Source: a plasmid
Direction: 5' to 3' (one strand)
Assembly: GCF_056746865.1 (NCBI RefSeq)
Contig: NZ_JBWKMP010000006.1
DNA: 63,119 bases
The position numbers were made by a program, and so were the translations under genes. Below the pieces are notes generated by a model. The model was not told where the DNA came from. It was given only the letters and a program-made list of their open reading frames with translations, and made no database searches. Within the stretch, counting starts at the first letter, position 1, and each line of letters begins with the position of its first letter. Below are positions 1 through 11,078 of this stretch, piece after piece.

Positions 1-2
1 CC

Positions 3-170
3 GGACTGTCCGGTGCCGCACGGGACGCAGAGAAGATGAAGAAAGGCGATGCGGCTGAACATGCAGAGTTCCATATGAAAGACAACCGCTGGGTGCCTGG
101 CTGGATGTGTGCACCACGTCCACAGACGGATGCCACTGAACGCACCGATAACCTGGCTGATGCCGCCTGA
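3..170 (+). CDS. 3-prime end of an upstream leading-region gene, truncated by the window edge; product unknown
   Basis: Open frame from the window edge to TGA at 168-170, immediately upstream of psiB; no motif recognised. Confidence 0.3.
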
Positions 171-222
171 TGAACAACCACACCGCCCCGCCGGAGACGG
201 GGCGGCAGAGGGAGATACCGTG

Positions 223-657
223 ATGAAAACTGAACTGACACTGAATGCCCTGCAGTCCATGAACGCACAGGAATATGAAGATATCCGTGCTGCGGGAAGC
301 GATATGCGCCGTAATCTCACTCACGAGGTGATGCGTGAAGTGGACGCACCGGCTAACTGGATGATGAACGGAGAGTATGGCAGTGAGTTCGGGGGCTTTT
401 TCCCCGTCCAGGTTCGTTTCACGCCAGCCCACGAACGTTTCCACCTGGCATTATGTTCGCCGGGAGACGTCTCTCAGCTCTGGATGCTGGTTCTGGTGAA
501 TGGTGGTGGACAGCCTTTCGCCGTCGTTCAGGTGCAACATATCTTCACGCCTGTCGCGATCAGTCACACGCTGGCGCTTGCCGCGACACTGGATGCGCAG
601 GGATACAGTGTTAACGACATCATCCATATCCTGATGGCAGAAGGAGGTCAGGCATGA
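223..657 (+). CDS. psiB: PsiB, plasmid SOS-inhibition protein B
   Basis: 144-aa product [25 protein letters not shown]... matches PsiB as recalled; GAGGGA Shine-Dalgarno upstream of ATG 223; the ORF-track start at 109 is an upstream extension. Confidence 0.9.
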
Positions 658-1373
658 GCGCACGTTCACGGGCACTGATCCCCCTCAGCGCAGAACAACA
701 GGCCGCCATGCAGGCGGTGGCTGTCACAGAACAACGTCGTCGTCAGGGACGCACACTTTCAGCATGGCCTTATGCCACCGCTTTCTTTCGCTGCCTGAAT
801 GGCAGTCGCCGGATTTCGCTGACCGATCTCCGCTTTTTTGCCCCTGCGCTGACGAAGGAGGAATTTCATGGCAACCGTCTCCTGTGGCTGGCTGCCGTGG
901 ATAAACTGATTGAAAGTTTTGGGGAAGTCTGTGTTCTTCCCCTGCCATCCGATGCGGGGCACCGTCTGTTCCCGTCCGTGCCTTTTCGTGAAGGTGAGCG
1001 TCGTCGTCAGAAAACCACGCTGACAGAGCAGAAATACAGCCGCCAGCGGGAACGTGAGGCAGAACGACGGGAACTGGAATACCAGACATGTTTTGCTCAG
1101 GCGCAGATTGACCTTGCGTTTCATACTCCCGCCACGGTCGGAAGCTGGTTGTCCCGCTGGTCTGGTGTTGTTGAGGAGCATGATCTGGAAACGATTTTCT
1201 GGGGGTGGTGCGGGCGTTTTCCATCACTGTCATCATTTGACCGGTTTTTCTGGCAGGAGGAACCACTCTGGCGGCTGATTTTTGAAGCCGGTGAGGCCGG
1301 TCGTGGTGCACCGGTACAGGTACGTGCACTTGAGCAGTGGATGATCCCGAACAAGCTGGAGAACGTAATATGA
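654..1373 (+). CDS. psiA: PsiA, plasmid SOS-inhibition protein A
   Basis: 239-aa ORF overlapping the psiB stop (ATGA); psiB-psiA pairing typical of F/IncI leading regions. Confidence 0.85.
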
Positions 1374-1966
1374 TGAAATCAGACGAAAAATACCAGGTTC
1401 CCGCGTGGATGCGACCTCTGTTGCCGTTGCTCTGCAACACCGGGGGGAACGATCCGGAAGAACTGCTGAATGATACAGAAACCACTGCCAGTGCGAATGT
1501 TGTCCGTTATGTACTGATAGTTGCTGTGCGGTCGCAGGTTGATCTGCTGCAGCTTCTGTACAGGAAAGGGCTGTTGCGCACAGAGATACCAGGTGGCTTT
1601 TCACCGGAAGAAGCGCAGGCACTCCTGGATAATCTGGTGCGCAGCCATATCAGCAAGGCGCTGTCGGGCGAGCGAATGGCAGCCCGTGACAGAAATGCCG
1701 ATCTGGCCTGGATTGGACAGCAACTGGTCGATGCCGCCTGGTTTGTCCGTGCCACACTGGAAGCGCATGGGATGAGCGTCGGAAATGAGAGTCCCCCTGC
1801 TCCGCCGGAGACAATGCCGGACATACAGACACGGGAACTGGTGATGTTGATCAAGCGACTGGCATCATCGCTGAAAGCGGTGAAACCGGACAGTTGTGTG
1901 GTGCGTGAAGCGCAGGACTGGCTGCGCGACAGAAAACTTGTGGATATCACAGATATTCTCCGGTGA
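1370..1966 (+). CDS. hypothetical leading-region protein downstream of psiA
   Basis: 198-aa ORF from ATG 1370 overlapping the psiA stop; same strand as the other leading-region genes; no motif recognised. Confidence 0.55.
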   Translation: MMKSDEKYQVPAWMRPLLPLLCNTGGNDPEELLNDTETTASANVVRYVLIVAVRSQVDLLQLLYRKGLLRTEIPGGFSPEEAQALLDNLVRSHISKALSGERMAARDRNADLAWIGQQLVDAAWFVRATLEAHGMSVGNESPPAPPETMPDIQTRELVMLIKRLASSLKAVKPDSCVVREAQDWLRDRKLVDITDILR

Positions 1967-1989
1967 ACCAGGCATGTATATTTTACGCA

Positions 1990-2420
1990 GGGACACGCCG
2001 ATCATGATCGTTTCATATCAGGGGTGGTCTGGAGGTCATGCGGCGTGTCCTCTGCACTCGCCGGAATAAGGAAGTCGCCGGCGGCTCCGCTTTTACCCGG
2101 CCATGCGGGGCATGGCCTTGTGGGTTTTCAGCTCTGTGGCCTCAGCGTCGTGTGCGGGCTGTGCCGTGCCTCCATCTTAGCCGGGCTGGCAGGGATGCAA
2201 GGGTACGCTTCGCCGCTGCGGTCACCCGGTCCCTCCTTCCCGTCTGCCGTGATTTTCCGGTCGTTCACCCGCTCAGATTTCGCGGTCTCACCCTCCAACT
2301 CCCGCCAGCCGTGTGCGTCAGGCTGCGGCTTCCCTTGCGCCCCTGCATCCCCGCCTTATCGCCCGGCTTTTATGGAGGCACGGCACCGCCCGGTGTCGCA
2401 GAACATGTGACTATGGAGGA
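1990..2420 (+). promoter_or_regulatory. GC-rich structured intergenic region upstream of ardA; possible single-strand promoter
   Basis: ~430 bp with no convincing ORF, high GC and many short inverted repeats, directly 5-prime of ardA; its sequence differs from the two Frpo-like copies. Confidence 0.25.
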
Positions 2421-2427
2421 TTCGGGA

Positions 2428-2928
2428 ATGTCTGTTGTTGCACCTGCTGTATACGTTGGAACCTGGCACAAATACAACTGTGGAAGCATCGCCGGACGCT
2501 GGTTTGACCTGACCACGTTTGATGATGAGCGCGACTTTTTCGCCGCCTGCCGTGCTCTTCACCAGGATGAAGCCGATCCTGAACTGATGTTTCAGGATTA
2601 TGAGGGATTCCCGGGGAATATGGCCTCTGAATGCCATATCAACTGGGCCTGGGTTGAAGGCTTCCGCCAGGCACGGGATGAAGGCTGCGAAGAGGCTTAT
2701 CGTCTCTGGGTGGATGATACCGGTGAGACGGATTTTGACACCTTCCGCGATGCCTGGTGGGGCGAGGCTGACAGTGAGGAGGCTTTTGCGGTTGAGTTCG
2801 TCAGTGATACCGGCCTGCTGGCTGACGTGCCGGAGACGGTGGCGCTCTATTTTGACTATGAGGCGTATGCGCGGGATTTATTCCTGGACTCCTTCACCTT
2901 TATTGACGGTCATGTGTTCCGTCGGTGA
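2428..2928 (+). CDS. ardA: ArdA antirestriction protein (anti type I restriction-modification)
   Basis: 166-aa acidic product [62 protein letters not shown]... matches ArdA as recalled; GGAGGA Shine-Dalgarno before ATG 2428. Confidence 0.92.
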
Positions 2929-3294
2929 TTTACTCCCCCGCTCCGGCGGGGGTATGGCCTGCCAGGCCGCCGGAAAACCCTGGCAGGCTTACGCCTGCCT
3001 GAAATGCAGGAGGGCCGCGCCTGCGGCGCTGCCCTTCCTGCCCGTCATGGTGTGAGGCATTTTTCTGTTATGTCGTTTCTGTTGTTCTGATTTCCGGAGG
3101 CGGGGACACCTTCGGCTCCCGGCTGCCTGGCGGCATCCGGTCGTCAGGCCCGACTCCGACAGGCAGCTGCTGGCGCACCCGCCAGTCTCCGCCGAACCCG
3201 CTGGCGCGGTTTCGGGCTGCCGCTACGGTCCGATGTCTGAAAAACCAGGCTTGCAGCGACCGTTCCGGTCGCGCCGCCCCTGTCGCGCCGGAAA

Positions 3295-3640
3295 CGGCGC
3301 TCCCTGCACACCTGACGGTGTGTAAGGCCACTGCGCCTGATGGCGCAGTCAACCCTTCCGCCGCCACCCCTGCGGCCTGTTTCCCGCTGTGGACTTTCCG
3401 GGGGCTGGAGTAACCACATCCCGTTTCAGCAGTCCAGGGGAAGATATACCGTCCACAAAATTTTTAGCCATAAACCCGGCAAAAAATTTTGCGTCCGCCC
3501 CGGACAGCTGCCCCGTGACGTGGTGACGGACGCCCCATCGGAAAGGTCCACTGCGGGGAGAAACCCCGAAGAAGTGGACGGCAGAAGGGGCTTTCGCCCC
3601 TCCGGGGAGCAACCGGTCGGCCCGGCGACCTGATTCAGCA
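3295..3640 (+). repeat. Frpo/ssi-like element, copy 1 (candidate single-stranded-DNA promoter)
   Basis: ~345-bp GC-rich non-coding block, about 80 percent identical over its length to 6172-6520 and beginning with the shared core CGGCGCTCCCTGCACACCT...GTGTAAGGCCACTGCGCCTGATGGCGCAG; ends just before ORF 3656. Confidence 0.5.
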
Positions 3641-3655
3641 GAAGGAGACGTTTTC

Positions 3656-4090
3656 ATGACAGTCAGCAGCACGATTTCCGTTTTTTGCCGCGACGGGGTG
3701 TTCCGTACCGTTTACTGCCACCTGCACGGTGAGCCGACCTGGAACGGTCGCATCCTGCATACCCACTATGCCACCGGTCAGCAGGCCGAAGCCCTGGTTG
3801 AACACGGTGATATCCGTTGCCTCGGTCCCCGTTGCGACAAACCCGCCGGGCATACGCTTCAGAACCCGGTGGACGGTGTGACGGCTTATTACGGACGTGA
3901 CAGTGGTTTCCGGATGGACAGTGAGGCGCGTGAGTACCGTTCTTTCAGGGAGGCTATTGCCACTGAAAGCACTGAAGAGGTGCGCTTCCATTATGTGTTC
4001 ATCGACGGCTACTGGAAGGTGATGTACCGCACGCCGGAAGGCTGGAAGATGAAAGCGCTCGCGCTGGCACTGCGTCGCTGTCCGGAATGA
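3656..4090 (+). CDS. hypothetical Cys/His-containing leading-region protein
   Basis: 144-aa ORF with AGGAGA Shine-Dalgarno, immediately downstream of Frpo-like copy 1; terminator follows. Confidence 0.7.
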   Translation: MTVSSTISVFCRDGVFRTVYCHLHGEPTWNGRILHTHYATGQQAEALVEHGDIRCLGPRCDKPAGHTLQNPVDGVTAYYGRDSGFRMDSEAREYRSFREAIATESTEEVRFHYVFIDGYWKVMYRTPEGWKMKALALALRRCPE

Positions 4091-4120
4091 AAAAAAGCAG
4101 GGCGATAAACCCTGCCTTTC
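4091..4120 (+). terminator. rho-independent terminator
   Basis: Stem GCAGGG / CCCTGC (4097-4115) followed by CTTTC. Confidence 0.5.
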
Positions 4121-4182
4121 TCCGCTGGCGCTTCCCCGTACGGAAGTCCGGCATCTCATTCACTAACTATGGAGATTATGCC

Positions 4183-4449
4183 ATGAGACCATCAATTATC
4201 TTCGCAACCGCCGAGTATGTAAAGCGTCTGCGTGAAGAGTGCCTGCGGGAGAATAAACCCCTGCACCGCCATACCCGCTTCAGACGTCAGGAGCTGGCAC
4301 AGGATGAGATTAACCCGGACGTCCTGGCGATGAGCGGCCATATCGCCAGACGCTGCAGTGAGCAGAAGCGGGTGCGTATCCCCGCCATGAAAGTCAGCGA
4401 ATGGGGCCACCTGCTCCGCGCGCTTGAAATTGAGCGGGTCTGCCACTGA
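4183..4449 (+). CDS. hypothetical small leading-region protein
   Basis: 88-aa ORF from ATG 4183 with GGAG 8 nt upstream; the ORF-track start at 4087 is an upstream extension. Confidence 0.55.
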   Translation: MRPSIIFATAEYVKRLREECLRENKPLHRHTRFRRQELAQDEINPDVLAMSGHIARRCSEQKRVRIPAMKVSEWGHLLRALEIERVCH

Positions 4450-4513
4450 TTAACCCTTGCCGTCTGCCTGTGCAGGCGGCAGGATACGTTCAGACATCTC
4501 ACCAGGAGGAACC

Positions 4514-5428
4514 GTGAGTAAGAAGAAAAACACCACAACGCCCACGCCGCATGATGCCGCGTTCCGGTCGTTCCTGGCGAATCCCGACGTCGCCAGAGAT
4601 TTTCTGGAACTGCATCTTCCGGCGGAGTACCGGCAGTTGTGCGACCTGTCCACGCTGAAGCTGGAACCCGCCACCTTTGTTGAGCCGGACCTGCATCAGT
4701 ACGCCAGCGATATCCTCTGGAGCGTGAAAACCACCGGGGGTGAAGATGGCTATGTTTATACGCTCATCGAGCACCAGAGCACCGAAAATCTGTACATGCC
4801 TTTCCGCATGTTACGTTACAGTGTGGCGGCGATGCAGAGACATCTGGAGCAGCACAAAACGTTGCCACTGGTGATTCCTGTACTGTTCTATCATGGTGAG
4901 CGCAGCCCGTACCCGTACAGCATGAACTGGCTGGACTGTTTTGAGAATCCGGCACTTGCGGCTAAAATATACACAAAGCCGTTTCCGCTGGTTGATATCA
5001 CTGTCGTTGATGACAATGAAATCATGAACCATCGCCGGATGGCCGCACTGACGCTGCTGATGAAGCATATCCGCCATCGTGACATGATGGAGCTGCTGGA
5101 CAAACTCCCGCAGGTCATGGTGGAAATTTCAGACGAGCAGGTGCGTGTTCTGATTCATTACATCGTTAACGCAGGGGACTCTGTATCACCGGAATTTATG
5201 CGGGCGCTGGCTGAGCGTCTGCCGCAGCATGAGGATAAACTGATGACTATCGCAGAACGTCTTGAGCAAAAAGGTCGCCAGGAAGGCAGGATGGAAGGAC
5301 GCATGGAAGGAGCGCTTGAAAAAGCCCTGGCTATTGCGTGCCAGCTTCAGAAAATGGGGATGACGCCGGAGCAGATTAAGCAGGCTACCGGACTTTCCGA
5401 TGACGAACTGAAGAAAATCACTCACTGA
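4514..5428 (+). CDS. Rpn family recombination-promoting nuclease (YhgA-like, PD-(D/E)XK)
   Basis: Product ...PTPHDAAFRSFLANPDVARDFLELHLP...YTLIEHQSTENLYMPFRMLRY...PLVIPVLFYHGERSPYP... closely resembles E. coli YhgA/Rpn proteins as recalled; AGGAGGA Shine-Dalgarno before GTG 4514. Confidence 0.85.
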   Translation: MSKKKNTTTPTPHDAAFRSFLANPDVARDFLELHLPAEYRQLCDLSTLKLEPATFVEPDLHQYASDILWSVKTTGGEDGYVYTLIEHQSTENLYMPFRMLRYSVAAMQRHLEQHKTLPLVIPVLFYHGERSPYPYSMNWLDCFENPALAAKIYTKPFPLVDITVVDDNEIMNHRRMAALTLLMKHIRHRDMMELLDKLPQVMVEISDEQVRVLIHYIVNAGDSVSPEFMRALAERLPQHEDKLMTIAERLEQKGRQEGRMEGRMEGALEKALAIACQLQKMGMTPEQIKQATGLSDDELKKITH

Positions 5429-5440
5429 TGAGAACCACAA

Positions 5441-5467
5441 AGCCCGGCAAAATGCCGGGCTTTTTTG
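5441..5467 (+). terminator. rho-independent terminator after rpn
   Basis: AGCCCGGCA-AAAT-GCCGGGCT stem-loop followed by TTTTTT. Confidence 0.6.
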
Positions 5468-5490
5468 TCAGCAGGAGCAGAGCAAACAGC

Positions 5491-5673
5491 ATGACGATTG
5501 CAGAACGTCTTATACAGAAAGGTTTCGACGAGGGTTTTAAACAAGGGGCTCTTGAAGTGGCGCGGGAAATAGCCTGCCGGCTTCGGGATATAGGCTGGCC
5601 GCCGGAACGGATTCAGGAGGTCACGGGACTTTCCGGTGAAGAACTGAAAAAGCTGTTTCCTGATGAGCAGTAG
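5491..5673 (+). CDS. small stand-alone paralogue of the Rpn C-terminal domain (RpnS-like)
   Basis: 60-aa ORF MTIAERLIQKGFDEGFKQGALEVAREIACRLRDIGWPPERIQEVTGLSGEELKK... with AGGAGCAG Shine-Dalgarno; aligns with the last ~60 aa of the upstream Rpn (MTIAERLEQKG...TGLSDDELKK). Confidence 0.6.
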   Translation: MTIAERLIQKGFDEGFKQGALEVAREIACRLRDIGWPPERIQEVTGLSGEELKKLFPDEQ

Positions 5674-5703
5674 CCTGGCATTCAGCCAGGCTGTGAATCA
5701 CGC

Positions 5704-5955
5704 TCACACATCCTCTGCCGTTTCCCCCAGTTCATTTTCCAGTCGCCTGATGATATCTGCCTTACGCATCCCCTGCATGTGAGGCAGCAGGTCACGGACT
5801 GAAAGTGCCTGGGTGGTCCTCCAGACGGTGACGTCCACCTGTTCCGCATTTTCCCAGGCGTGCCATGTTCTCTGCGTCACGCCAAATTCTCTGGCCGCTT
5901 TTTCGCGTGACCAGAGCATGCTTTTTCGCCAGATTCGCAGTTCCCAGCCGGTCAT
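5704..5955 (-). CDS. small helix-turn-helix DNA-binding regulator (XRE/Cro-like)
   Basis: 83-aa ORF with an HTH-like segment SREKAAREFGVTQRTWHAWE; AAGGTG Shine-Dalgarno; divergent from Frpo-like copy 2. Confidence 0.6.
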   Translation of the reverse strand: MTGWELRIWRKSMLWSREKAAREFGVTQRTWHAWENAEQVDVTVWRTTQALSVRDLLPHMQGMRKADIIRRLENELGETAEDV

Positions 5956-5966
5956 AAAACACCTTT

Positions 5967-6060
5967 GAAAAAGTGAAAAAACTTCACTTTATTTTATCAT
6001 CACAATTGCCAAATCAGCGCGATAAATAAGTGTAAAAAAGTGAAGAAATTTCACTTTTTT
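5967..6060. promoter_or_regulatory. two AGTGAA-N-TTCACT palindromes (candidate operators) in the promoter region of the HTH gene
   Basis: AAAGTGAAAAAACTTCACTTT (5969-5990) and AAAAAGTGAAGAAATTTCACTTTTT (6035-6060), AT-rich, directly upstream of the - strand HTH gene. Confidence 0.4.
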
Positions 6061-6171
6061 TGCTTGTAAATGTCGTGCGGTTTTCTCTGTTTTCACCTGT
6101 GCGGGAGTGGTGTGCCAGTGACCACCACATGCCATTGTTGTGCCGTCGTTTTTCTTCAGTCGCGCCGTATG

Positions 6172-6520
6172 CGGCGCTCCCTGCACACCTTACGGTGTGT
6201 AAGGCCACTGCGCCTGATGGCGCAGCTGTCTCTGCCTGTCTGCCGCCGCACTGCGGCCTGTTCTCCGCAGACGGACTTTCCGGGGGTACATACATGACCA
6301 CATCCCGTTTCAGTCGTCCAGGGGGGAGATGTACCAGCCACAAAACTTTTTGCCGCAGGCGTCAAAAACTTTTGCGTCTGCCCCCGGACAACTGCCCCGT
6401 GACGTGGTGAGCGTCCCCCGTCGGAAAGGTCCACTGCGGGGAAATCCCCGAAGACCCGGACGGCAGAAGGAGCTTCGCTCCTCCGGGAAATGACCTGGCT
6501 GTCCCGGCAGTCGTGACGAT
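6172..6520 (+). repeat. Frpo/ssi-like element, copy 2 (candidate single-stranded-DNA promoter)
   Basis: Homologous to 3295-3640 (same 5-prime core and shared downstream blocks such as CTGCCCCGTGACGTGGTGA and GGAAAGGTCCACTGCGGGGA); ends at the Shine-Dalgarno of ORF 6535. Confidence 0.5.
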
Positions 6521-6534
6521 GAGGAGACAATGTG

Positions 6535-7383
6535 ATGAATCAGACTTTACCCACTGCTGACCTGAATACTGCCGGCACGACAGATGTTATTCCGTCTGTG
6601 GCTATCGACCGCATCATCGCGCAGCGTAACGAAGGTATTGCACTGTTCATGCAGGCGATGGAATGCCTGGCGACAGCGCGCAAGATTCTGCTCGATGCGT
6701 CAGGTGATATTTTTCTTTACGGGTTTGAAGACTGCGTGACTGATTCCGTTCGTCGCATAGATAAACCGGAAGAAGCGAAAAGGAATATCACCCGTCTTGC
6801 CGACCGGAAAATCTGGGACCGCCTGATGACAGATACGGGCATGTACACCTTCATGAGTTCATGCCAGCGTGATGAGTGGAACAGCCAGCTGATGAGCGAC
6901 ACCTGTCCTGAAATCACCCTGGACAATGTACTGGCAACATTCCGCCATCTGAATGCCTGCAAGATGCAGACATTTGAACAGGGACTGATTGATGTCTACC
7001 GGAAATTGTCATGGGATTACAGAACCAATAATCCCTGCCGTCTGGGTAAGAAAATCATTATTGAAAACCTGCTGTACCGCTGGAGTAACGGGCGTGTGAC
7101 GCTGGACTGCAGCGGACGGGAGGCACTGGATGACCTGGTACGTCCGTTTTATCTGCTGGAGGGGCGCAACGTTCCTGACTTCAGGAACAGTATCGGGGCG
7201 CAGTATGGTGAATTTCTCGGGAACGGCGACAATGTCGGTAAGCTGTTAGAAGGGGAATATTTTACGGTGCGTGGCTACCAGAAAGGGACCGTACACATTG
7301 TCTTTAAGCGTTCTGACCTTGTTGAAAAACTGAATGATATTATTGCACGGCATTATCCAGGTGCATTGCCGCCACGAGTCTGA
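6535..7383 (+). CDS. hypothetical leading-region protein (family guess: DUF4942-like)
   Basis: ~282-aa ORF with GAGGAGA Shine-Dalgarno, directly downstream of Frpo-like copy 2; the family assignment is from memory only. Confidence 0.7.
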   Translation: MNQTLPTADLNTAGTTDVIPSVAIDRIIAQRNEGIALFMQAMECLATARKILLDASGDIFLYGFEDCVTDSVRRIDKPEEAKRNITRLADRKIWDRLMTDTGMYTFMSSCQRDEWNSQLMSDTCPEITLDNVLATFRHLNACKMQTFEQGLIDVYRKLSWDYRTNNPCRLGKKIIIENLLYRWSNGRVTLDCSGREALDDLVRPFYLLEGRNVPDFRNSIGAQYGEFLGNGDNVGKLLEGEYFTVRGYQKGTVHIVFKRSDLVEKLNDIIARHYPGALPPRV

Positions 7384-7394
7384 TTAAACAGAAA

Positions 7395-7427
7395 AGCCCT
7401 GGTATTTATGCCGGGGCTTTTTTTTCT
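7395..7427. terminator. bidirectional rho-independent terminator
   Basis: AGCCCTGG...CCGGGGCT hairpin preceded by an A-run and followed by T8; sits between convergent ORFs. Confidence 0.5.
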
Positions 7428-7468
7428 GTAATCATCATAATCTCAGAACACAATGTGACATTGTCACA

Positions 7469-7804
7469 TCAATTGTTGTTCATATCGATGCCATCTTTCC
7501 TGCCTGAATCTGTCTTTTTAGGTGCTGTTTTAGAGGAAGAACGGCGGGATGGTTTTTTCGATTCTGCTTCCCGAATAATGTCACGAAGTGCCTTCTCTCC
7601 TACTTCATACCCTGCATTTTTGAGCGTGTCACGAACATCTGCCAGTGTATAACCCTTTGTCCTTACCAGGACAATAATGTCATCACGAATGGCATCAAGA
7701 AAATCACGCAATGTTTTCCGTTGAGCGGTGAGATCTGGCAATTCCGATAAAGCAGCTTTTGCCAGCTGGATGTCATCATCTGAGTAAAATTTTTTAGAAG
7801 CCAT
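7469..7804 (-). CDS. hypothetical protein with a basic Ser/Lys-rich C-terminal tail
   Basis: 111-aa ORF from ATG (7804) with GGAGA upstream; lies between the leading region and oriT. Confidence 0.5.
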   Translation of the reverse strand: MASKKFYSDDDIQLAKAALSELPDLTAQRKTLRDFLDAIRDDIIVLVRTKGYTLADVRDTLKNAGYEVGEKALRDIIREAESKKPSRRSSSKTAPKKTDSGRKDGIDMNNN

Positions 7805-7859
7805 TGGCACTTTCTCTCCGTTTCATGTTGAAGCCTGATTTTATCATCAAAAACTGACT

Positions 7860-8030
7860 CCTGGCAGGGCTGCGCCCTGCCTCTGCCGTCTGCATAAGAC
7901 TATGATGCACAAAAATAACAGGCTATAATGGCCAAAATCGGGGCAGGATGTGGGAATGTCGGACCGCGCACGCTCGCTCAGACATTCCCCACCTGGTCAG
8001 GGCTGCGCCCCGACACCCCGTAAGGAGCTG
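7860..8030. other. oriT: oriT region (origin of transfer), candidate nic site
   Basis: Directly upstream of nikA; inverted repeat GGCAGGGCTGCGCCCTGCC (7863-7881); 9-bp inverted repeat GGGAATGTC...GACATTCCC (7952-7989); IncP-like ATCCTG motif on the - strand at 7944-7949; second GGTCAGGGCTGCGCCCCGAC copy at 7995-8014. Confidence 0.55.
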
Positions 8031-8032
8031 AA

Positions 8033-8366
8033 GTGAGTGATAGTGCGGAAAAGAAAGAAAAGTGAGGTACGGCAAAAGACAGTTGTCAGGACACTCAGAT
8101 TCTCGGAGGATGAGGATGAAATCATAAGGAAAAAAGCTGAAGATTCCGGACTTACTGTATCTGCTTACATCCGAAATGCAGCACTGAATAAGCGAATTAA
8201 CTCCCGTACAGATGATGCTTTTCTGAAGGAGTTAATGAGACTGGGAAGGATGCAGAAGCATCTGTTTGTTCAGGGAAAAAGAACCGGTGACAAGGAATAC
8301 GCAGAAGTGCTTGTTGCCATAACCGAACTTACAAATACATTGCGTAAACAGTTAATGGAAGGTTGA
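8033..8366 (+). CDS. nikA: NikA relaxosome accessory protein (ribbon-helix-helix); start ambiguous
   Basis: Product ...KKSEVRQKTVVRTLRFSEDEDEIIRKKAEDSGLTVSAYIRNAALNKR... matches NikA as recalled; best Shine-Dalgarno (AAGGAG) serves GTG 8033, but that frame stops after 10 codons and the long frame starts at GTG 8037, implying a 1-nt indel in the GAAAAGAAAGAAAAG run. Confidence 0.8.
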
Positions 8367-8376
8367 GGATTCTCCT

Positions 8377-11078
8377 GTGAATGCAGTCATTCCGAAAAAG
8401 AGAAGGGACGGCAAGTCTTCGTTCGAAGACCTGGTATCCTACGTCTCTGTCCGGGATGACATGACCGATGAGGAACTGAATTTATCTTCTTCTTCGCAGG
8501 CTGAACAACCGCACCGAAGCCGTTTCAGTCGCCTTGTTGATTATGCGACACGCCTTCGAAATGAGTCATTCGTGGCGCTGGTTGATGTCATGAAGGACGG
8601 CTGCGAATGGGTCAACTTTTATGGTGTCACCTGTTTTCATAACTGTACTTCTCTTGAAACTGCTGCTGCAGATATGGAGTACATTGCGGACGGCAGGCAC
8701 ACTATGCAAAAGATGATACTGACCCTGTTTTTCACTACATTCTTTCCTGGCAGTCACATGAAAGCCCGCGTCCGGAACAGATTTATGACAGTGTACGTCA
8801 TACGCTGAAATCACTCGGCCTTGCCGACCATCAGTATGTCTCTGCCGTGCATACTGATACAGATAATCTGCACGTCCATGTGGCTGTTAACCGGGTACAC
8901 CCTGAAACGGGTTATCTGAACCGGTTATCATGGAGTCAGGAAAAACTCAGTCGTGCCTGCCGTGAGCTTGAACTGAAGCATGGTTTTGCTCCGGATAACG
9001 GTTGCTGGGTCCATGCGCCGGGAAATCGTATCGTTCGCAAAACTGCCGTTGAACGTGATCGCCAGAACGCTTGGACACGCGGAAAAAAACAAACTTTTCG
9101 CGAGTATGTTGCGCAGACAGCGGTCGCTGGTTTACGCAGTGAACCTGTACATGACTGGTTATCCCTGCATCGTCGTCTTGCGGAAGATGGTCTGTACCTG
9201 TCTCAGATGGACGGAAAATTTCTGGTGATGGATGGCTGGGATCGCAACAGGGAAGGTGTACAGCTTGACTCGTTTGGTCCCTCCTGGTGTGCAGAAAAAC
9301 TCATGAAAAAAATGGGTGACTACACGCCAGTGCCAAAAGACATTTTCAGCCAGGTGGAAGCACCAGGACGCTATAATCCGGACTTCATTGCAGCTGATGT
9401 TCGCCCGGAAAAAATCGCTGAAACAGAAAGTCTGCAGCAGTATGCCTGTCGTCATCTTGGAGAACGTCTGCCGGAAATGGCACGGGAAGGACGGCTGGAA
9501 AACTGCCAGGCTATTCACCGCACACTGGCTGAAGCGGGATTATGGATGCGTGTTCAGCATGGTCACCTGGTTATCTGTGACGGTTATGATCATAACCAGA
9601 CTCCCGTTCGTGCTGACAGCGTATGGTCACTGCTGACGCTCGACAATGTGAATCAACTCGATGGTGGCTGGCAGCCTGTACCAACAGATATTTTCCGCCA
9701 GGTTACGCCAACAGAACGCTTCCGTGGTCGTCGTATGGAGAGCTGTCCTGCGACCGATAAAGAATGGCACCGTATGCGTACAGGTACGGGGCCGCAGGGG
9801 GCTATCAAACGCGAACTGTTTTCTGACAAAGAAAGTCTGTGGGGATACAGCATCAGCCATTGTAGCCCTCAGATTGAAGAAATGATCACACAGGGTGAGT
9901 TTACCTGGCAGCGTTGTCATGAGTTGTTTGCACAACAGGGACTGATGCTACAGAAACAACATCACGGGCTTGTTGTCGTTGATGCCTTTAATCATGAGCA
10001 AACGCCGGTGAAGGCCAGCAGCATTCATCCTGATCTGACACTGGGGCGTGCGGAGCCACAGGCCGGACCTTTTGTGAGTGCTCCAGCAGATTTGTTTGAC
10101 AGGGTGCAACCTGAAAATCGCTATAACCCGGAGCTGGCTGTCAGTGACAGGTACGGGGTCAGCAGTAAACGTGACCCAATGCTGCGCCGGCAGCGACGTG
10201 AAGCCAGGGCTGAGGCCCGTGCTGACCTGCGTGCCCGCTATCTGGCATGGCGTGAACAATGGCGTAAACCGGATCTGCGTTATGGGGAACGTTGTCGGGA
10301 AATTCATCAGGCATGCCGTCTGCGGAAGTCACACATTCGTGCGCAGTACGATGATCCGGCATTACGTAAGCTGCATTATCACATTGCAGAAGTTCAGCGA
10401 ATGCAGGCATTGATCAGGCTGAAAGAAGACATCAGGGATGAGCGACAGAAACTTATTGCTGACGGGAAGTGGTATCCACCCTCTTACCGTCAGTGGGTCG
10501 AAATTCAGGCTGCTCAGGGAGACAGGGCTGCTGTATCGCAGTTGAGAGGCTGGGATTATCGCGATCGCCGTAAAGACAAGTCACGCACAACGACGACAGA
10601 CCGCTGTGTCGTGCTTTGTGAACCGGGCGGAACGCCGGTATACGGTAATACCGGTGATCTCGAGGCCCGTCTGCAGAAGAACGGGAGTGTTCGTTTCCGT
10701 GACCGTCGGACGGGAGAGTTTGTCTGTACGGATTATGGTGACAGGGTTGTTTTCCGTAATCACCATGACCGCAATGCGCTGGCAGATAAACTGGATTTGA
10801 TTGCACCGGTATTATTCGGGCGTGATCCACGCATGGGGTTTGAACCAGAAGGAAACGACAAACAATTTAACCAGGTCTTTGCTGAAATGGTTGCCTGGCA
10901 TAATGTGACAGGCCGTACCGGTCACGAAGACTACAGGATTACGCGACCGGACGTGGATCATCACCGTGAAGGAAGTGAACGCTACTACCGCGATTATATC
11001 GCGGCGAACAGCAACGATGACGCATCACTGCCTCCGCCGGAGCAGGATAAACGCTGGGAACCGCCTTCTCCAGGTTAA
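8377..11078 (+). pseudogene. nikB: NikB relaxase (MOBP), frameshifted in this sequence around 8698-8708
   Basis: N-terminal 143-aa ORF (8377-8808) and 743-aa ORF (8847-11078) join if one nucleotide is restored; the second frame upstream reads ...DPVFHYILSWQSHESPRPEQIYDSVRHTLKSLGLADHQYVSAVHTDTDNLHVHVAVNRVHPETGY (His-rich relaxase motif); combined ~900 aa. Confidence 0.85.

Follow-up and report, generated by a model that had tools for sequence, protein, structure and literature searches.

Two small open reading frames (ORFs) near the start of a 63,119-nucleotide stretch of plasmid DNA, here called the window (contig NZ_JBWKMP010000006.1 of RefSeq assembly GCF_056746865.1), are the ydfA and ydfB genes of R64/ColIb-type plasmids. 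Both are real genes under purifying selection, and they lie behind an Frpo/ssi-type single-stranded DNA (ssDNA) promoter element in the leading region of an IncI1-type conjugative plasmid, which occupies the first 11 kb of the window. We tentatively propose that their products are entry-stage accessory factors belonging to an ssDNA-promoter unit, and that their most likely task would be to neutralize or pre-empt a barrier in the new host. An initial annotation had described ORF1 (3656–4090, 144 amino acids (aa)) and ORF2 (4183–4449, 88 aa) as genes with good Shine–Dalgarno sequences between ardA and rpn. The coordinates are exact, the ORFs do lie between ardA (2428–2928) and an Rpn-family gene (4514–5428), and the Shine–Dalgarno sequences can be seen as AGAAGGAGAcgttttcATG (ORF1) and ATGGAGAttatgccATG (ORF2). 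The central features are:

3270–3650, minus strand: Frpo/ssi-type (class 1) ssDNA promoter element, predicted to fold on the transferred strand and to fire towards ydfA (plus strand)
3656–4090, plus strand: ydfA, 144 aa, WP_000218862-type; a diverged member of a very large uncharacterized phage and conjugative-element family
4091–4182, plus strand: ydfA–ydfB spacer with two predicted RNA hairpins
4183–4449, plus strand: ydfB, 88 aa, WP_001247862-type; a basic protein of three predicted helices and the IncI member of the YdaB/YdfB/YgdA family

We regard both genes as real because of their substitution ratios, the sizes of their families and the confident structural model of YdfA. With an IncI-like Salmonella salamae plasmid (78.6% DNA identity) as reference, the ratio of non-synonymous to synonymous substitution rates (dN/dS) is 0.19 for ydfA and 0.35 for ydfB, near those of ardA (0.12) and rpn (0.16). 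About 2,000 clusters are related to YdfA and 468 to YdfB, in both cases with conserved motifs. Run with the family alignment, AlphaFold2 predicts a compact globular α/β protein for YdfA, with a predicted local distance difference test score (pLDDT) of 95.7 and a predicted template modelling score (pTM) of 0.89. The main ydfA allele is present at ≥95% identity in 1,978 of 2,016 PLSDB plasmids, and the DNA segment 3000–4600 matches more than 5,000 PLSDB plasmids, 1,954 of them with at least 80% coverage. A 120-aa reading of ORF2, starting at 4087 with an ATGA overlap with the ydfA stop codon that would permit translational coupling, was rejected: relatives do not share this start, and in homologues stop codons lie upstream, so ydfB starts at 4183.

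The names follow from existing records. ORF1 is a hypothetical protein in RefSeq (WP_000218862) and is listed as 'post-segregation killing protein PndC' in UniProt and in older annotation. The phage record for the homologue GAP32_348 reads 'similar to YdfA', with reference to plasmid pSC138, which is one of the exact-match plasmids; this identifies ORF1 as ydfA. For ORF2, UniRef gives the exact sequence the name YdfB. The PndC label was judged against the Hok/Sok arrangement, in which a short leader or mok-like frame overlaps a Hok/Gef-type toxin gene and the pnd locus lies next to trbABC. It is rejected here: ydfA has no Hok/Gef neighbour, its product has no Hok_Gef or other Pfam match, and a 144-aa globular α/β protein is predicted. 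The Hok/Gef gene of pESBL-EA11 lies at 79824–79976, about 14 kb from ydfA and beyond nikB and trbABC.

Both families have been catalogued before. In Supplementary Table 1 of Samuel et al. 2024, family 1 (4,739 members; names YdaB, YdfB and YgdA; label 'Uncharacterized; Phage protein') is the largest leading-region-enriched family, with a median position of ORF 6 from the origin of transfer (oriT), T-strand orientation, and no DIAMOND or Foldseek match to anti-CRISPR or anti-restriction sets. Family 23 has 2,203 members, a median position of 7 and the label 'PndC (Hok/Sok TA related)', and both families show significant leading-region enrichment and T-strand orientation. Family 1 is firmly the family of ydfB; family 23 is assigned to ydfA by shared name and position. 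Transposon insertion sequencing (TnSeq) of pESBL scored ydfA (Hp16, 65546–65980) as non-essential 0.76, maintenance 0.24 and transfer 0.00, and ydfB (Hp17, 66074–66340) as non-essential 1.00, a class shared with ArdA, PsiA and PsiB (PMC4288162); both genes are dispensable in K-12 matings. Literature searches with the RefSeq accession, phrog_1987 and the names ydfA, ydfB and ydaB in combination with leading regions returned no reported function for either gene. The genes and their candidate status were thus already in the literature, and the present work adds context and corrects a misleading name; it does not describe a new system.

The Frpo/ssi-type element and early expression

The element ahead of ydfA is about 370 nt long, and ydfA begins about 15 nt downstream. 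Folded as ssDNA on the minus strand of the window, positions 3270–3650 reach −111.7 kcal/mol, compared with −76.3 ± 4.3 kcal/mol for shuffled sequences (z = −8.3), and a second copy at approximately 6150–6510 is 83% identical. The fold and the second copy bear out the earlier description of an Frpo-like element in front of the first ORF. Plasmid pESBL-EA11 contains three copies, upstream of ssb, ydfA and a DUF4942 gene, and partial homology to the element is found upstream of IncF ydaB and ssb in pO157. An Rfam search of positions 1–9000 identified no known RNA in the ssi element or in the ydfA–ydfB spacer.

The first 4.5 kb of the window, comprising the promoter–gene block, is 98.7% identical to pESBL-EA11. 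Wen et al. 2025 (PMC12672017) describe six operons that are induced up to ~500-fold at 15 min in pESBL transconjugants, with all six start sites mapped by 5′ rapid amplification of cDNA ends. Three of the promoters are ColIb-P9 ssi1–3/Frpo-type 'class 1' hairpins and show the strongest early induction (PMC12672017). Because its position and identity match, the element ahead of ydfA is taken to be one of these three class 1 promoters. Early induction of ydfA and ydfB in the recipient is strongly inferred, because class 1 promoters were mapped in the nearly identical pESBL-EA11 block, and on this ground the initial suggestion of early expression is well supported.

The orientation of the genes is consistent with this assignment. 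The nikA and nikB genes are located at about 7.9–8.4 kb of the window, which places oriT there, and psiB, psiA, ardA, ydfA, ydfB and rpn are all encoded on the plus strand and directed towards oriT. The ydfA and ydfB genes share the orientation of ardA and psiB, which makes the transferred strand their template. They therefore have the placement that defines ssDNA-promoter-driven genes, within the first kilobases after oriT and with the transferred strand as template. The proposed unit would run from the Frpo/ssi element through ydfA, ydfB and rpn to a small ORF resembling the Rpn C-terminus, with ydfA and ydfB as its first two genes. In the recipient it would be transcribed in the first minutes that follow transfer, with the incoming single strand as template, and it would fall silent once the complementary strand has been made. 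The rpn gene is next in the same orientation and probably belongs to the same early transcription unit.

The spacer between ydfA and ydfB may have a role of its own. The RNA fold of 4081–4190 (−34.6 kcal/mol) contains two hairpins, the first of which (GCAGGG...CCCTGC followed by CUUUCU) resembles a weak intrinsic terminator and is succeeded by a second stem. A consensus terminator scan did not flag the spacer (4091–4182). The region is 99% conserved in plasmids that carry a different ydfA allele (see below), and the hairpins could act as an attenuator or as an element of RNA or transcript stability.

YdfA: family, fold and distribution

YdfA gave no match in Pfam, NCBIfam, PADLOC or PDB sequence and profile searches. 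It does match phrog_1987 (E = 5e-21, residues 1–126) and phrog_23089, both of unknown function, and 1,979 relatives are found at E ≤ 1e-3 (258 at E ≤ 1e-10) among representatives clustered at 50% identity. The initial annotation could place neither ORF in a known family from sequence alone. This holds for curated families, but YdfA matches phrog_1987, and Samuel et al. 2024 had already catalogued the YdfA and YdfB families. Foldseek found no significant relative of the YdfA model in the PDB and 161 matches at E ≤ 0.001 in AFDB50, with template modelling scores of 0.7–0.85 across the AFDB relatives. The best 50 of these 161 matches come mostly from bacteria of many phyla; one archaeal and one eukaryotic entry and viral metagenomes are also among them.

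An alignment of 66 diverse members defines the motif set of the family: M-x-T-R-S at the extreme N-terminus, YCHWDGY, NG..L..HY, LGD.S.L, GH(S/T)F, YGRDRG and EY.Y.F..G.W. The IncI1 protein is a member both by a profile match over the whole domain and by its motifs, keeping 22 of the 28 columns that are conserved at ≥75%, and it retains H22, H66, R81, D82, Y113 and W120. ORF1 had been noted for several Cys and His residues, and it has five and seven of these, respectively. Conservation among these is limited to C21 (78%), H22 (98%) and H66 (100%), and a CxxC motif is lacking. H22, D/H24, H66 and D82 could form a metal-binding or catalytic site.

The polar residues kept across phyla are H22, D24, S54, H66, R81-D82-R83 and several tyrosines. 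Identity between proteobacterial and clostridial members is 35–50%, which is unusually high for a mobile-element protein. Because of this cross-phylum conservation and the invariant His/Asp/Arg/Tyr set, the most economical reading is that YdfA would either be a small enzyme or bind some universal ligand or host component. The pattern appears unlike that expected of an inhibitor tailored to one defence protein. Longer homologues were searched for informative fusions and have sporadic, unrelated C-terminal additions only (one WYL_2; one gp32-like and probably chimeric).

Phage carriers of the family include jumbo phages (GAP32, Serratia phage BF and Erwinia phages), KVP40-like vibriophages and T4-like cyanophages, in which the genes sit within long runs of small co-oriented hypothetical genes. 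In jumbo phage GAP32 (7592–9438 of the comparison locus), GAP32_348 (239 aa) lies about 2 kb from genes for a nicotinamide mononucleotide adenylyltransferase and a PnuC transporter (nicotinamide adenine dinucleotide (NAD) salvage), a proximity that may be coincidental. Bacterial neighbourhoods were surveyed at 80 loci from GTDB species genomes by a profile scan of contigs with a tight family alignment. A VirB4-type conjugation ATPase gene lies on the same strand, at a median of 0.9 kb upstream, in 29 of the 80 loci, and DUF3846 adjoins the family gene in 16. Other recurrent neighbours are the ArdC N-terminal domain (ArdcN; 12 loci), DUF1281 and DUF6103 (11 each), SSB (8), and the MobP3 relaxase and M23 peptidase (7 each). 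Among loci of at least 8 kb, 27 of 50 have one or more of VirB4, MobP3 relaxase, ArdcN, SSB and M23 peptidase.

In Clostridia, Bacilli and Mollicutes, YdfA-family genes are found inside conjugative elements, often just downstream of the VirB4-type ATPase gene, and their further neighbours there are ArdC-N, DUF3846, DUF1281, DUF6103, SSB, amidoligase and GGCT genes. The leading region of pESBL-EA11 likewise holds a DUF1281 gene. A Salmonella homologue that is 43% identical to YdfA adjoins two ArdC-like genes. Across phyla, the family thus travels on elements that have to gain a foothold in each new cell.

Some IncI backbones that are otherwise 95–99% identical carry a second, 143-aa ydfA allele in the same slot (6001–6432 in three comparison loci), with 51–53% identity. 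DNA identity along the swap is 93–97% up to about 3390, declines inside the promoter element, falls to 51–59% across ydfA and returns to 99% from 4083. On the right the swap ends precisely at the stop codon of ydfA; on the left its limit is inside the Frpo element. The synonymous divergence (dS) of the ydfA alleles is saturated at 2.7, whereas that of neighbouring genes is 0–0.13, which argues for replacement by an anciently diverged allele and not for rapid evolution in place. The occurrence of the diverged allele in the same slot of near-identical backbones indicates that the slot is kept while its content is exchanged. We considered and rejected a description of ydfA as a 'hypervariable cassette', since one allele dominates in PLSDB, as noted above, and only the 51–53% allele is a true slot replacement. 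The 86%-identical ydfA of the Salmonella salamae plasmid tracks the divergence of its backbone (78.6% DNA identity overall).

YdfB and the neighbouring genes

YdfB belongs to no curated family in Pfam, NCBIfam, PADLOC, PDB sequence or PHROG searches. Its profile search yields the 468 clusters mentioned above, almost all from Enterobacterales and including proteins named YdaB and YdfB, and homologues with 43–45% identity over the C-terminal 60 residues were found in upwards of 3,000 other plasmids, out of a total of at least 5,000 matching records. Homology and leading-region position together make ORF2 a member of the YdaB/YdfB/YgdA family. The conserved core consists of R32, G51-R-H-I-A55, V64-x-I-P-A-M69 and G75..L78-R..L-E..R85, and the invariant positions are R32, I54, V64, P67, G75, L78, R79, L81, E82 and R85. 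YdfB is basic, with an isoelectric point (pI) of 9.9 and a net charge of about +6, and it would most likely bind a nucleic acid or a protein partner. The initial annotation had proposed remote-homology and structure searches to look for a housekeeping or structural family; these have returned only uncharacterized relatives among the best 50 structural matches of YdfA, and no fold match for YdfB.

In pO157 and pMccB17 the homologue is ydaB (76 aa), located directly behind an Frpo-like element and followed by ydbA (DUF3560) and a methyltransferase gene. In an Enterobacter MOBF plasmid the YdfB homologue precedes an N6-methylase gene. The remaining features of the leading region, with neighbour annotation taken from RefSeq records of near-identical plasmids, are:

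2428–2928, plus strand: ardA, known anti-restriction gene upstream of ydfA, marking the boundary of the preceding early unit (from annotation)
4514–5428, plus strand: Rpn-family gene (PD-(D/E)XK, Transposase_31), from annotation, with Pfam PF04754/PF27070 on the orthologue
5428–5673, plus strand: 81-aa ORF resembling the C-terminal end of Rpn, with a direct repeat (5243–5286 / 5491–5534)
6150–6510 (approximate), minus strand: second Frpo/ssi-type copy, assigned by similarity to the first, with a counterpart in pESBL-EA11
6532–7383, early orientation: DUF4942 gene, directly downstream of the second Frpo/ssi copy and the leading-region gene closest to oriT

The order along the plus strand is psiB, psiA, a 198-aa hypothetical gene, ardA, the structured non-coding element, ydfA, ydfB, the Rpn-family gene and the Rpn-C-like ORF, followed by an XRE-family regulator gene (minus strand), the second structured element, the DUF4942 gene, nikA and nikB. 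The 81-aa ORF matches phrog_12274 and phrog_3300 at the profile C-termini only, and looks like a stand-alone small protein similar to the Rpn C-terminus. In pESBL-EA11 an extra ORF encoding a 129-aa acidic, Cys-rich protein (66517–66906) is located between ydfB and rpn; the window lacks it (gap 4449–4514), and the ydfB–rpn interval is a variable slot inside the early operon. Upstream of ardA, the long GC-rich stretch 2038–2430 contains implausible ORFs only, one of them labelled DUF1472 in some records, and its position agrees with that of the 'class 2' ssDNA promoter reported ahead of ardA in pESBL. The nikB gene is split into two frames (8377–8808 and 8847–11078) and, relative to pESBL-EA11 nikB, has a 2-nt 'GG' insertion at about 8688; this reflects either a sequencing error or an inactivated relaxase.

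Possible roles and comparison with known systems

The reading that we tentatively favour is that YdfA and YdfB are conditional entry-stage factors like the products of the neighbouring ardA and psiB genes, dispensable in laboratory K-12 matings, and that they would most likely act by neutralizing or pre-empting a barrier in the new host. An anti-defence role, drawn by analogy with the surrounding genes, is plausible for both, and it fits the neighbourhood and the distribution across elements.

Several observations weigh against this reading. Neither our analysis nor the literature searched revealed an anti-defence activity of either protein or an experimental link to any defence system. The two proteins do not resemble DNA mimics of the ArdA/Ocr type, with pI values of 7.05 for YdfA and 9.90 for YdfB, compared with 4.08 for the ArdA of the window, and no ArdA Pfam domain. 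Neither shows fold similarity to solved anti-defence proteins (Acr, Tad, Acb, Gad and others), the YdfB comparison being made with a model of moderate confidence. That model has three predicted helices (10–22, 45–59 and 73–87; pLDDT 70.8, pTM 0.44) and gave no Foldseek match at E ≤ 0.001. The best 50 of the 161 AFDB50 matches of YdfA are all 'uncharacterized' or mislabelled PndC, and it is the conservation pattern that suggests the enzyme reading of YdfA. The IncI1 protein is altered at six of the 28 columns conserved at ≥75% (T3V, D24H, Y26E, S54R, F68L and R83S), and the activity of the IncI1 branch may therefore be altered; enterobacterial homologues deviate at shared positions, with S54R and R83S in the 53% allele and R83A in P0114. 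The induction reported for pESBL refers to whole operons. Finally, many Firmicutes and Mollicutes homologues lie within the transfer-gene cluster, between VirB4 and a cell-wall hydrolase, a position that could point to a role in transfer itself.

It is possible, although we hold it as doubtful, that the two proteins are early establishment factors acting on host physiology (transcription, metabolism or acquisition cost) and not on defence, with YdfB as a DNA-binding regulator and YdfA as a metabolic or nucleotide-modifying enzyme. Host reprogramming, which is not a defence-related role, has been shown for HerB/YfjB, a zygotically induced ParB-like leading-region protein (PMC13370423). YdfB is strongly basic and helical, the cross-phylum identity of the YdfA family fits a universal target better than a strain-specific defence protein, and the dispensability of both genes in K-12 matings agrees with such a role. 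Neither the Pfam search nor Foldseek, however, recognized a DNA-binding domain in YdfB. The recurrent neighbours of the YdfA family include ArdC-type anti-restriction domains, and the exchange of ydfA for a deeply diverged allele within one slot follows a pattern common among genes that engage variable host factors.

We consider it unlikely, though worth stating, that the YdfA domain is an unrecognized enzyme or ligand-binding fold that phages and conjugative elements of many bacterial phyla alike deploy at entry. Its target would be some conserved molecule of the host, such as an immune signalling nucleotide, a NAD-derived metabolite or a nucleic-acid end. YdfB would then be a second, independent effector, and the IncI1 ydfA alleles would have been neo-functionalized and kept by allele exchange.

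It is improbable that one or both proteins serve neighbouring genes, with YdfB/YdaB acting as regulator, chaperone or antidote of a downstream DNA-acting enzyme, an account that would also cover the label 'PndC, Hok/Sok related'. YdfB-family genes do precede a gene for a DNA-modifying or DNA-cutting enzyme in three backbones (Rpn in IncI1, DUF3560 and a methyltransferase in IncF, and an N6-methylase in the Enterobacter plasmid), and the PndC label for ydfA is present both in NCBI and in Samuel et al. The downstream partner nevertheless varies between backbones, and the unrelated gene inserted between ydfB and rpn in pESBL-EA11 argues that there is no fixed pairing. The ydfB–rpn gap is 65 nt, without overlap, and the PndC label fails on every feature tested for ydfA. 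Spurious ORFs do arise in the ssi region (such as DUF1472-type and antisense calls) and TnSeq finds neither gene to be required, but the idea that ydfA and ydfB are chance frames or remnants without function, lying in a structured intergenic region, is refuted for practical purposes by the selection on both genes, their large families with conserved motifs, the confident YdfA model and the near-uniform presence of the main ydfA allele.

Entry-stage action against a host barrier remains our tentative reading, and the two genes merit attention. IncI1 and IncF plasmids are major carriers of extended-spectrum β-lactamase and other resistance genes, and their establishment depends on the first minutes spent in a new host. 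YdfB is a member of the single largest uncharacterized leading-region-enriched family, and YdfA, from a very widespread phage and conjugative-element family, has a confidently predicted fold without a solved relative; for these reasons ydfA and ydfB are among the most attractive candidate early genes. Knowing what either of them does would close one of the biggest annotated gaps among early genes, and might also uncover a counter-defence or host-manipulation activity that plasmids and phages share.

Among known leading-region proteins, ArdA, KlcA/ArdB and PsiB are encoded in the same region as YdfA and YdfB, in the same orientation and with ssDNA promoters, and ArdA and PsiB are likewise non-essential in pESBL TnSeq. 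YdfA and YdfB differ from them in lacking sequence or fold similarity, in not being acidic and in having no demonstrated target. The IncF proteins YdaB and YgdA share with YdfB the motif HIA...V(R/H)IPAM...G..LR.LE..R, the leading-region location, the orientation and an uncharacterized function. In comparison, IncI1 YdfB has a longer and different N-terminal third, its gene is the second after the promoter (behind ydfA) whereas ydaB is the first, and the gene that follows is rpn in place of ydbA (DUF3560) and a methyltransferase gene.

For YdfA the closest counterparts are the phage proteins of phrog_1987 and phrog_23089 (GAP32_348, KVP40.0229 and S-PM2p016), which have the same domain with 28–45% identity. 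Together with the conjugative-element relatives they have the same predicted fold, and their carriers likewise depend on establishment in a new cell. In contrast to IncI1 YdfA, many members from phages and bacteria have unrelated C-terminal extensions, and the IncI1 branch differs at the six columns given above; no member of this type has a known function. HerB (YfjB), a large CTP-binding ParB-like clamp, has no homology to YdfA or YdfB, but it too is encoded in a leading region and induced zygotically, with its action confined to the earliest post-transfer stage (PMC13370423), and it serves here as a working analogy rather than as a relative.

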